From positions 96,001 through 160,000 of the IMG/VR virus record IMGVR_UViG_3300042887_005324: DNA of 64,000 nt; one strand, 5' to 3'. The translations under genes were made by a program, and so were the position numbers. This stretch comes from a virus. A model generated the notes under the pieces. That model searched no databases, was not told the origin of the DNA, and was given only the letters and a program-made list of their open reading frames with translations. Of this stretch, positions 4,261-4,331 are shown piece by piece; positions within the stretch are counted from its first letter, which is position 1; each line of letters begins with the position of its first letter.

Positions 4261-4331
4261 AGGTCGGGGATAGATTCTCACTACCGTAAAAGACTTTGCT
4301 GGTCTCTGCCTAAATGCTCAGCCACCCGACC
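4261..4331 (-). tRNA. tRNA-Cys(GCA), non-canonical (A33; D-loop GG->AT; T-loop TGAGAAT)
   Basis: GGTCGGG/CCCGACC acceptor stem, GAGAC-CAGCAAA-GTCTT anticodon arm, GGTAG-TGAGAAT-CTATC T arm, U73; CCA not encoded. Confidence 0.8.

Follow-up and report, generated by a model that had tools for sequence, protein, structure and literature searches.

The window analysed here, a 64,000-nt stretch of a virus contig, carries a tRNA-Cys(GCA) gene whose elbow, where the D loop meets the T loop, lacks the bases expected there. Textbooks list G18, G19, pseudouridine-55 and C56 as near-invariant in cytosolic-type tRNAs, and this part of the molecule is a docking site for the ribosome, RNase P, RNase Z, the CCA-adding enzyme and several enzymes of modification. 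The alignment of 61 relatives shows that in this tRNA-Cys family selection acts on the pairing of positions 19 and 56 and on the coupling of positions 18 and 55, not on base identity. On this comparative evidence the gene most probably (with a probability of about 0.75) encodes a functional phage elongator tRNA-Cys with an alternative elbow that keeps the geometry of the usual one. New in this family are a G18/U55 class with a swapped 19:56 pair, the occurrence of all Watson-Crick pairs at 19:56 within one family, switching between states at syntenic loci and a free position 33. Full-text literature searching found no paper describing an A18/G55 swap, elbow rewiring in a phage tRNA or a Bacteroidetes tRNA-Cys with C33.

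The tRNA-Cys gene and its genomic setting

The source record is a 174-kb IMG/VR virus contig of 30% G+C, estimated to be about 68% complete. ARAGORN identifies a single tRNA in the window, a tRNA-Cys(GCA) on the minus strand (4260..4331). The other tRNAs that it calls in the record are two tRNA-Met, both with canonical GG and TTC loops, and the window gene is the sole tRNA-Cys. The sequence-only reading had described a tRNA-Cys with paired stems, a GCA anticodon and U73. This description is upheld by ARAGORN and by a manual parse of the gene, and the strand can now be added. The parse also confirms in every particular the changes reported in that reading (A18U19 in the D loop, G55A56 in the T loop, and A33). 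The features of the gene and its surroundings are as follows.

4261..4331, minus strand: tRNA-Cys(GCA) gene, 71 nt, from position 1 to U73 (ARAGORN, manual parse, four identical metagenome runs)
4312..4318, minus strand: D loop A14 G15 C16 A18 U19 U20 U21 (7 nt), without G18 G19; A18 is 4315 and U19 is 4314
4295..4301, minus strand: anticodon loop C32 A33 G34 C35 A36 A37 A38; A33 is 4300 and the anticodon 4299-4297
4274..4280, minus strand: T loop U54 G55 A56 G57 A58 A59 U60; G55 is 4279 and A56 is 4278; U54 and A58 are retained
4339..4473, minus strand: conserved 44-aa ORF, its stop codon 7 nt upstream of the tRNA-Cys gene
3829..4245, minus strand: yqeY, GatB/YqeY-type tRNA-binding domain (PF09424, E 1.4e-18; phrog_1460), starting 16 nt past the tRNA
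2508..3773, minus strand: metK (SAM synthetase), three S-AdoMet_synt domains in Pfam, downstream of yqeY
4494..4521, minus strand: sigma-70-like hexamer pair TTGATA-16-TATATT, a consensus match only, upstream of the 44-aa ORF
7660..8130: greA
9202..10071: cysK-like PALP gene
12343..13566: UvsX-like recombinase gene

In the manual parse all seven pairs of the acceptor stem are Watson-Crick, and the stem is followed by U8 and G9. The D stem consists of G10-C25, C11-G24 and U12.G23 together with a G13/A22 mismatch, at the site where E. coli tRNA-Cys has A13/A22. The anticodon stem has five pairs, including one G.U, the variable loop is UUAC, and the T stem has five pairs with one G.U (G49-C65, G50.U64, U51-A63). 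The discriminator U73 corresponds to 4261, and no CCA is encoded at the 3' end. The GCA anticodon and the U73 discriminator, which are the main CysRS identity elements, are invariant across the relatives (61/61).

The gene therefore shares with canonical bacterial tRNA-Cys(GCA) the stems and loops of the cloverleaf, the GCA anticodon, U73, a 3-bp D stem and a purine-purine 13/22 mismatch. It also shares a 7-nt D loop of the AGY..UU type, G15 with C48, U8, A14, U54, A58 and a purine at 57. It differs in having A18 U19, G55 A56 and A33 where an elongator of this kind has G18 G19, U55 C56 (in the T-loop sequence U54 U55 C56) and U33. The D loops of canonical relatives (AGYGGUU) are equal in length to that of the window gene, so that A18 and U19 can be equated by position with G18 and G19, no gap being needed.

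Sequencing error had been named in the earlier reading as a way in which these changes could prove spurious. However, contigs from four runs belonging to four studies span 4261-4331 with zero differences from the window. The stretch itself is present in 20 metagenome runs of freshwater or lake origin, which belong to 12 studies, and an independent metagenome contig (L193) carries an identical tRNA-Cys together with a yqeY gene. There are no RNA runs among the public runs that contain the stretch.

The 44-aa ORF, the tRNA-Cys gene, yqeY and metK follow one another in this order, all on the minus strand. A sigma-70-type scan of the surroundings gave sites no more frequent than in shuffled sequence; it revealed no convincing promoter or terminator belonging to the tRNA-Cys gene itself, and no terminator was found. 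The TTGATA-16-TATATT pair is a possible promoter of the operon, although such sites are not above shuffled expectation. The 174-kb record yielded neither a phage CysRS nor a CCA-adding enzyme; as it is only about 68% complete, this does not imply their absence from the whole phage. Codon use in the record amounts to 530 UGU and 44 UGC, both of which are read by GCA. In genome G000 overall Cys use is 1.09%, with 92% UGU, and outside the window a 1628-codon ORF (G000:C1:66509-71393) contains 101 Cys codons (6.2%).

Two mechanically delimited ORFs of the window overlap the tRNA-Cys gene: a 64-aa frame on the plus strand (4258-4452) and a GTG-extended version of yqeY on the minus strand (3829-4281). 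Both are probably not genes, the start of yqeY being the ATG at 4245. Elsewhere in the window, a proposed tRNA-Arg(UCU) split by a group I intron (6523-6802) was not called by ARAGORN, which was run without intron search.

The sequence-only reading had also drawn attention to yqeY directly downstream and to cysK and metK nearby. The positions of these genes are as it stated, but the adjacency to yqeY holds in only three lineages. In tblastn searches covering many loci with several kb of flanking sequence, the tRNA-Cys gene adjoins yqeY in the window/L193 lineage, in the L011 group and in the L013 group. A general role of yqeY as a co-evolving partner of the tRNA-Cys gene was dropped because the adjacency is limited in this way. 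In relatives without a tRNA-Cys at this place, yqeY is immediately preceded by a conserved RNA-like element some 130 nt long (L001:2815-2975 and equivalents in L002, L003, L007, L008 and L010; alignment A2). It opens with the D-arm-like sequence GUAGAAUGGUAACACUAC. RNAalifold predicts hairpins in it, with compensatory changes at four pairs, and it has no Rfam match.

Covariation and switching at the elbow

Relatives were gathered through YqeY-protein loci and through two DNA-pattern scans of viral, genome and metagenome collections. The second pattern constrained the T stem, the 3' strand of the acceptor stem and some of the T loop, and left positions 55-57 and the entire D loop free. Covariation of the D loop with the T loop is thus not imposed by the search, whereas comparisons of rates between loops and backbone are biased by it. 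A structural parser retained 62 unique tRNA-Cys, of which 61, from phage contigs, metagenome contigs and Bacteroidota genomes, were aligned with MAFFT (alignment A1). The collection of phage records contains no close relative of the region, with only weak matches to the 635-kb uncultured phage LR745206.1, and an exact 31-mer of the tRNA-Cys has no match in viral contigs.

The stems are strongly maintained across the 61 relatives. Pairing is observed in 98.6% of the cells, 20 of the 21 pairs change on both sides, and shuffled or slid registers never approach the observed value. Positions 19 and 56 are among the most variable columns of the molecule (1.77 and 1.76 bits) and yet they are paired in 56 of the 61 sequences, whereas 20,000 permutations gave 26 on average and never more than 41. 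All four Watson-Crick combinations occur (GC 25, UA 16, AU 10, CG 3), together with one GU, one UG and five other states. The mutual information between these columns, 1.20 bits, is the second-highest among all column pairs and exceeds that of most helical pairs. Positions 18 and 55 are coupled without a single mixed case: 48 sequences have G:U and 13 have A:G (mutual information 0.71).

The unpaired cases at 19:56 number five in the MAFFT alignment and four in the manual parse. Two of the "other" cases are 8-nt D loops misplaced by MAFFT, which pair once the extra nucleotide is put at position 17. Pairing is truly missing in the L097 group (A19/G56), in L147 (U19/C56) and in two genes of Mariniradius.

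An alignment of homologues, proposed in the sequence-only reading as the way to verify the joint changes at 19/56 and 18/55, therefore shows that both couples covary. It supports the view put forward there of a selected compensatory structure as opposed to decay. Random mutation, which had been considered as a possible source of the changes, agrees poorly with changed positions that covary and with stems that have accumulated abundant compensatory changes.

The variant members of the family can be subdivided into two classes. Class A, which includes the window gene, combines A18 and G55 with U19-A56, U19.G56 (in L011), C19-G56 or G19-C56. This variant elbow is characterized by the strict coupling of A18 with G55 and by the retention of a Watson-Crick or wobble pair at 19:56. 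Class B, which makes up half of the variant family, keeps G18 and U55 and carries U19-A56 or A19-U56.

The two classes also differ in the way they are detected. The Rfam tRNA model (RF00005) reports the window copy neither at the gathering threshold nor at E<=10, and the same is true of the identical copy in L193. Class B relatives score 49-57 bits against this model, while class A relatives are lost in gathering mode. A near relative of the window gene, L200, reaches 48.5 bits in permissive mode and is likewise lost in gathering mode. With such a score in so close a sequence, the failure of the window copy looks like a loss at the Infernal filters and not like evidence against a tRNA. Since these filters drop the window gene, tRNAs with rewired elbows are probably under-annotated in phage genomes and metagenomes.

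Elbow states switch among genes occupying equivalent places. Many class A and class B genes are found behind one conserved 44-aa ORF, whose C-terminal coding sequence is common to many loci with differing elbow states. Mixed states are also present in a syntenic group whose upstream ORF ends in DLPF and in two related tRNA arrays, and altogether 18:55 or 19:56 occurs in more than one state within each of at least four syntenic groups. L200 and L206 differ in 2 of 59 backbone columns and in 6 of 16 loop columns. A backbone-only tree requires, as a minimum, about 17 changes for 19:56, about 5 for 18:55 and about 10 for position 33; these counts are rough, the tree resting on a short alignment of 59 columns and being weak. 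Near relatives show 0.139 changes per site in loops and 0.067 in the backbone, which is a hint only since the search pattern fixed much of the backbone. Canonical and rewired tRNA-Cys genes coexist in at least two groups of phage contigs (L066/L205 and L207), and in L207 they are 13 nt apart. L154 has a second, long-arm tRNA-Cys call besides its tRNA-Cys.

Position 33 is also variable, with C in 30 of the 61 relatives, U in 25, G in 4 and A in 2. The sequence-only reading had treated A33 as special to the window gene. This view is not sustained: C33 is the commonest state, A33 recurs in L192, and C33 is also found in several Bacteroidota genomes, in a second paralogue of tRNA-Cys. Judging from these counts, position 33 is free in the tRNA-Cys family, and A33 is one of its states.

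Isotype specificity and cellular counterparts

The rewiring is largely specific to one isotype. Among the 411 unique tRNAs of the fetched loci, the GG and TTC motifs are both lost in 26 tRNA-Cys and in 4 others (three tRNA-Phe and one tRNA called as tRNA-Ala by ARAGORN). The tRNA-Phe of L030, L049 and L052 combine the T loop AGCGTAA with a D loop that lacks GG, an arrangement that resembles A18/G55 combined with A54/U58. The tRNA-His and tRNA-Lys of L001-L003 and L007-L009 exhibit ATCGTAA T loops, in which A54 and U58 replace U54 and A58. The contigs carrying these T-loop rewirings in tRNA-His, tRNA-Lys and tRNA-Phe are related jumbo-phage contigs.

A tRNA-Cys match is present in 119 of the 121 Bacteroidota genomes sampled. 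About 70 of these loci were fetched (69 parsed) and have TTC T loops throughout, with the exception of L290 (G080:C18:45728-45799). This locus, the only tRNA-Cys match of a 2.0-Mb Bacteroidota genome, has the D loop AGCGACUU and the T loop UUUGACU, which place A19 opposite U56. Because L290 is the only match in its genome, its swapped pair probably serves cellular translation, and a swapped 19:56 pair is likely to be compatible with cellular translation.

In its acceptor stem and T arm the phage family comes nearest to tRNA-Cys paralogues in Bacteroidota, which suggests, but does not prove, a Bacteroidota host for the phage. The close paralogues are the second tRNA-Cys of Sphingobacterium, Rubrolithibacter, Mariniradius and a Sphingobacteriaceae MAG.

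This second type of tRNA-Cys in Bacteroidota (L244 141-632, L242, L245, L247 and L246; genomes G004, G001, G002 and G005) accompanies a canonical one. Its members carry C33 and often complementary bases at 32/38; their T stem reads GGUGG and their acceptor stem GGUCRGR. Those of Mariniradius form tandem arrays and have 6-nt D loops without G19 (AGUGCG, AGUGUC, AGUGUA, AGUGCA), and one MAG contains about ten copies. That these cellular C33-type paralogues might be prophage cargo was considered and dropped, their neighbours being ordinary chromosomal genes.

Function of the rewired tRNA-Cys and reasons for its switching

As a working elongator, the tRNA-Cys would be matured and used with host enzymes. 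Host RNase P and a 3' nuclease probably release it from the transcript of an operon, since it has no convincing promoter of its own and lies between the 44-aa ORF and yqeY on one strand. CCA would be added by the host enzyme, as the gene does not encode it and the 174-kb record yielded no enzyme that adds it. Host CysRS would then charge the tRNA through U73 and the GCA anticodon, and both UGU and UGC would be read. At the elbow, A18 with G55 could substitute for G18 with pseudouridine-55 as a geometric stand-in with donors and acceptors reversed, and U19-A56 could replace G19-C56, so that the L-shape would be kept. The fold of the T loop may be held by U54-A58 and by the purine at 57. The L1 stalk, RNase P as well as the T-box read the elbow chiefly through stacking against the flat surface of the 19:56 pair (PMC4810234), suggesting that any Watson-Crick pair at these positions should serve.

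Counting against an elongator, A33 removes the uridine of the canonical U-turn and G55 cannot become pseudouridine. A56 probably impairs recognition by TruB and TrmA, given the requirements of these enzymes in the T loop. Moreover, the S. aureus tRNA-Gly species that bear G55 are non-proteogenic (PMC7826273), so that G55 alone is no proof of use on the ribosome.

These staphylococcal tRNAs inspire another reading, in which the window gene would encode a non-ribosomal cysteine donor or a decoy that avoids the ribosome. They are donors for the cell-wall pentaglycine and serve FmhB, G55-type T loops are their hallmark, and their D and T arms hold transferase determinants (PMC7826273). The window gene resembles them in its G55 (TGC or TGT T loops there, UGA in the window), in the absence of pseudouridine-55 and in a U-derived base at 19 (PMC7826273). 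It is also located near the sulfur-related genes cysK and metK, and at least two groups of phage contigs keep a canonical tRNA-Cys beside the rewired one. However, the weak binding of EF-Tu by the staphylococcal tRNAs depends on A49-U65, U50-A64 and A51-U63 (PMC7826273), weak pairs which the window T stem lacks. Their dihydrouridine-19 faces C56 or U56 without a Watson-Crick pair, whereas the window maintains U19-A56 (PMC7826273). A dedicated transferase was not seen among about 25 neighbouring ORFs, of which none matched an aminoacyl-tRNA transferase family. The gene is further the sole tRNA-Cys of its 174-kb record, the sole detected tRNA-Cys of a cellular genome has a swapped pair, and class B, half of the variant family, retains G18 and U55. 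A role away from the ribosome is therefore very improbable. That the gene is a pseudogene in decay, or an artefact of assembly or sequencing, is scarcely credible: altered near-invariant bases and the silence of Rfam would fit it, but four independent runs give one and the same sequence and the stretch recurs in 20 runs of 12 studies, the stems are intact with compensatory changes throughout the family, and the changed positions covary.

For the functional elongator that we prefer, the reason for switching between elbow states may be sought in drift or in conflict. Under relaxed constraint and AT mutation pressure, positions 18, 19, 55, 56 and 33 would drift non-adaptively with pairing alone being kept, in a tRNA that a phage of 30% G+C would need only briefly. 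This is possible, though doubtful. The base composition of the genome, the predominance of A:U and U:A among the variant pairs, the likely intermediates U19.G56 (L011) and A19/G56 (L097 group) and the freedom of position 33 are all consistent with it. However, tRNAs of other isotypes in these phages nearly all remain canonical, and a genome-wide pressure thus fails to explain why tRNA-Cys is singled out. Neither C19:G56 nor the combination of G19:C56 with A18:G55 (L207) is AT-driven, and the strict coupling of A18 with G55 requires selection. Alternatively, and in our estimation rather unlikely, the rewiring could serve anti-defence or insulation. The shape would be kept while the bases read by a host factor at the elbow or anticodon loop are changed, the factor being a tRNA-cleaving nuclease or toxin or enzymes of modification and quality control, and the phage tRNA would survive an attack on host tRNA-Cys. 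Such a role is compatible with an elongator, as it concerns only the reason for switching. It would account for repeated switching among close relatives and at orthologous loci, for the high variability of columns 19 and 56 (1.77 and 1.76 bits), for the near confinement of the effect to tRNA-Cys in this sample and for the presence of canonical together with rewired genes (L066/L205, L207; also the second long-arm call in L154). Phage tRNAs that escape tRNA nucleases through changes in their loops are documented (PMC10264068, PMC11464382, PMC11555353). On the other hand, some cellular Bacteroidota paralogues lack U33 and a cellular genome has A19:U56, so that conflict is not required, and the 59-column tree is weak with rough change counts. 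In addition, no Bacteroidota nuclease that targets tRNA-Cys or the elbow is known to us. A more specific proposal, which we hold to be decidedly unlikely, is diversifying selection on the elbow and on position 33. A factor that reads G18/G19/pseudouridine-55/C56 or U33 would be evaded by a phage cycling through alternatives that preserve the geometry. This factor may come from the host or from a rival phage, for example an unrecognised tRNase directed at the elbow or T loop or a modification-dependent quality control.

The window gene shares with the documented defence-escaping phage tRNAs loop bases unlike those of the host and a conserved anticodon (PMC10264068, PMC11464382, PMC11555353). 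These include T5-type anticodon-loop variants, a tRNA-Lys acting against PARIS and a tRNA-Tyr acting against retron-Eco7/Septu (PMC10264068, PMC11464382, PMC11555353). However, they are changed in the anticodon or variable loop in response to an identified nuclease, while the window gene is changed mainly at the elbow and cellular relatives share some of its states. If the switching is adaptive, the arms race around phage tRNAs would extend from the anticodon loop to the elbow. If diversifying selection is the cause, the elbow would be a new battleground between phage and host, and the family would prove by natural variation that for the ribosome the shape of the 18:55 and 19:56 contacts suffices.

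With all four Watson-Crick pairs at 19:56 and the flip of 18:55 to A:G, this tRNA-Cys family amounts to a mutagenesis series supplied by nature. The prediction that follows from it is that the geometry of the 18:55 and 19:56 contacts is all that decoding, processing and charging require. The consensus G18 G19 and T-Psi-C sequences are also lost in metazoan mitochondrial tRNAs (PMC2777451, PMC4810234). However, those tRNAs often drop the contact between D and T loops and operate with ribosomes and RNase P that have no matching readers, whereas here covariation keeps the contact, in a setting of bacterial translation.
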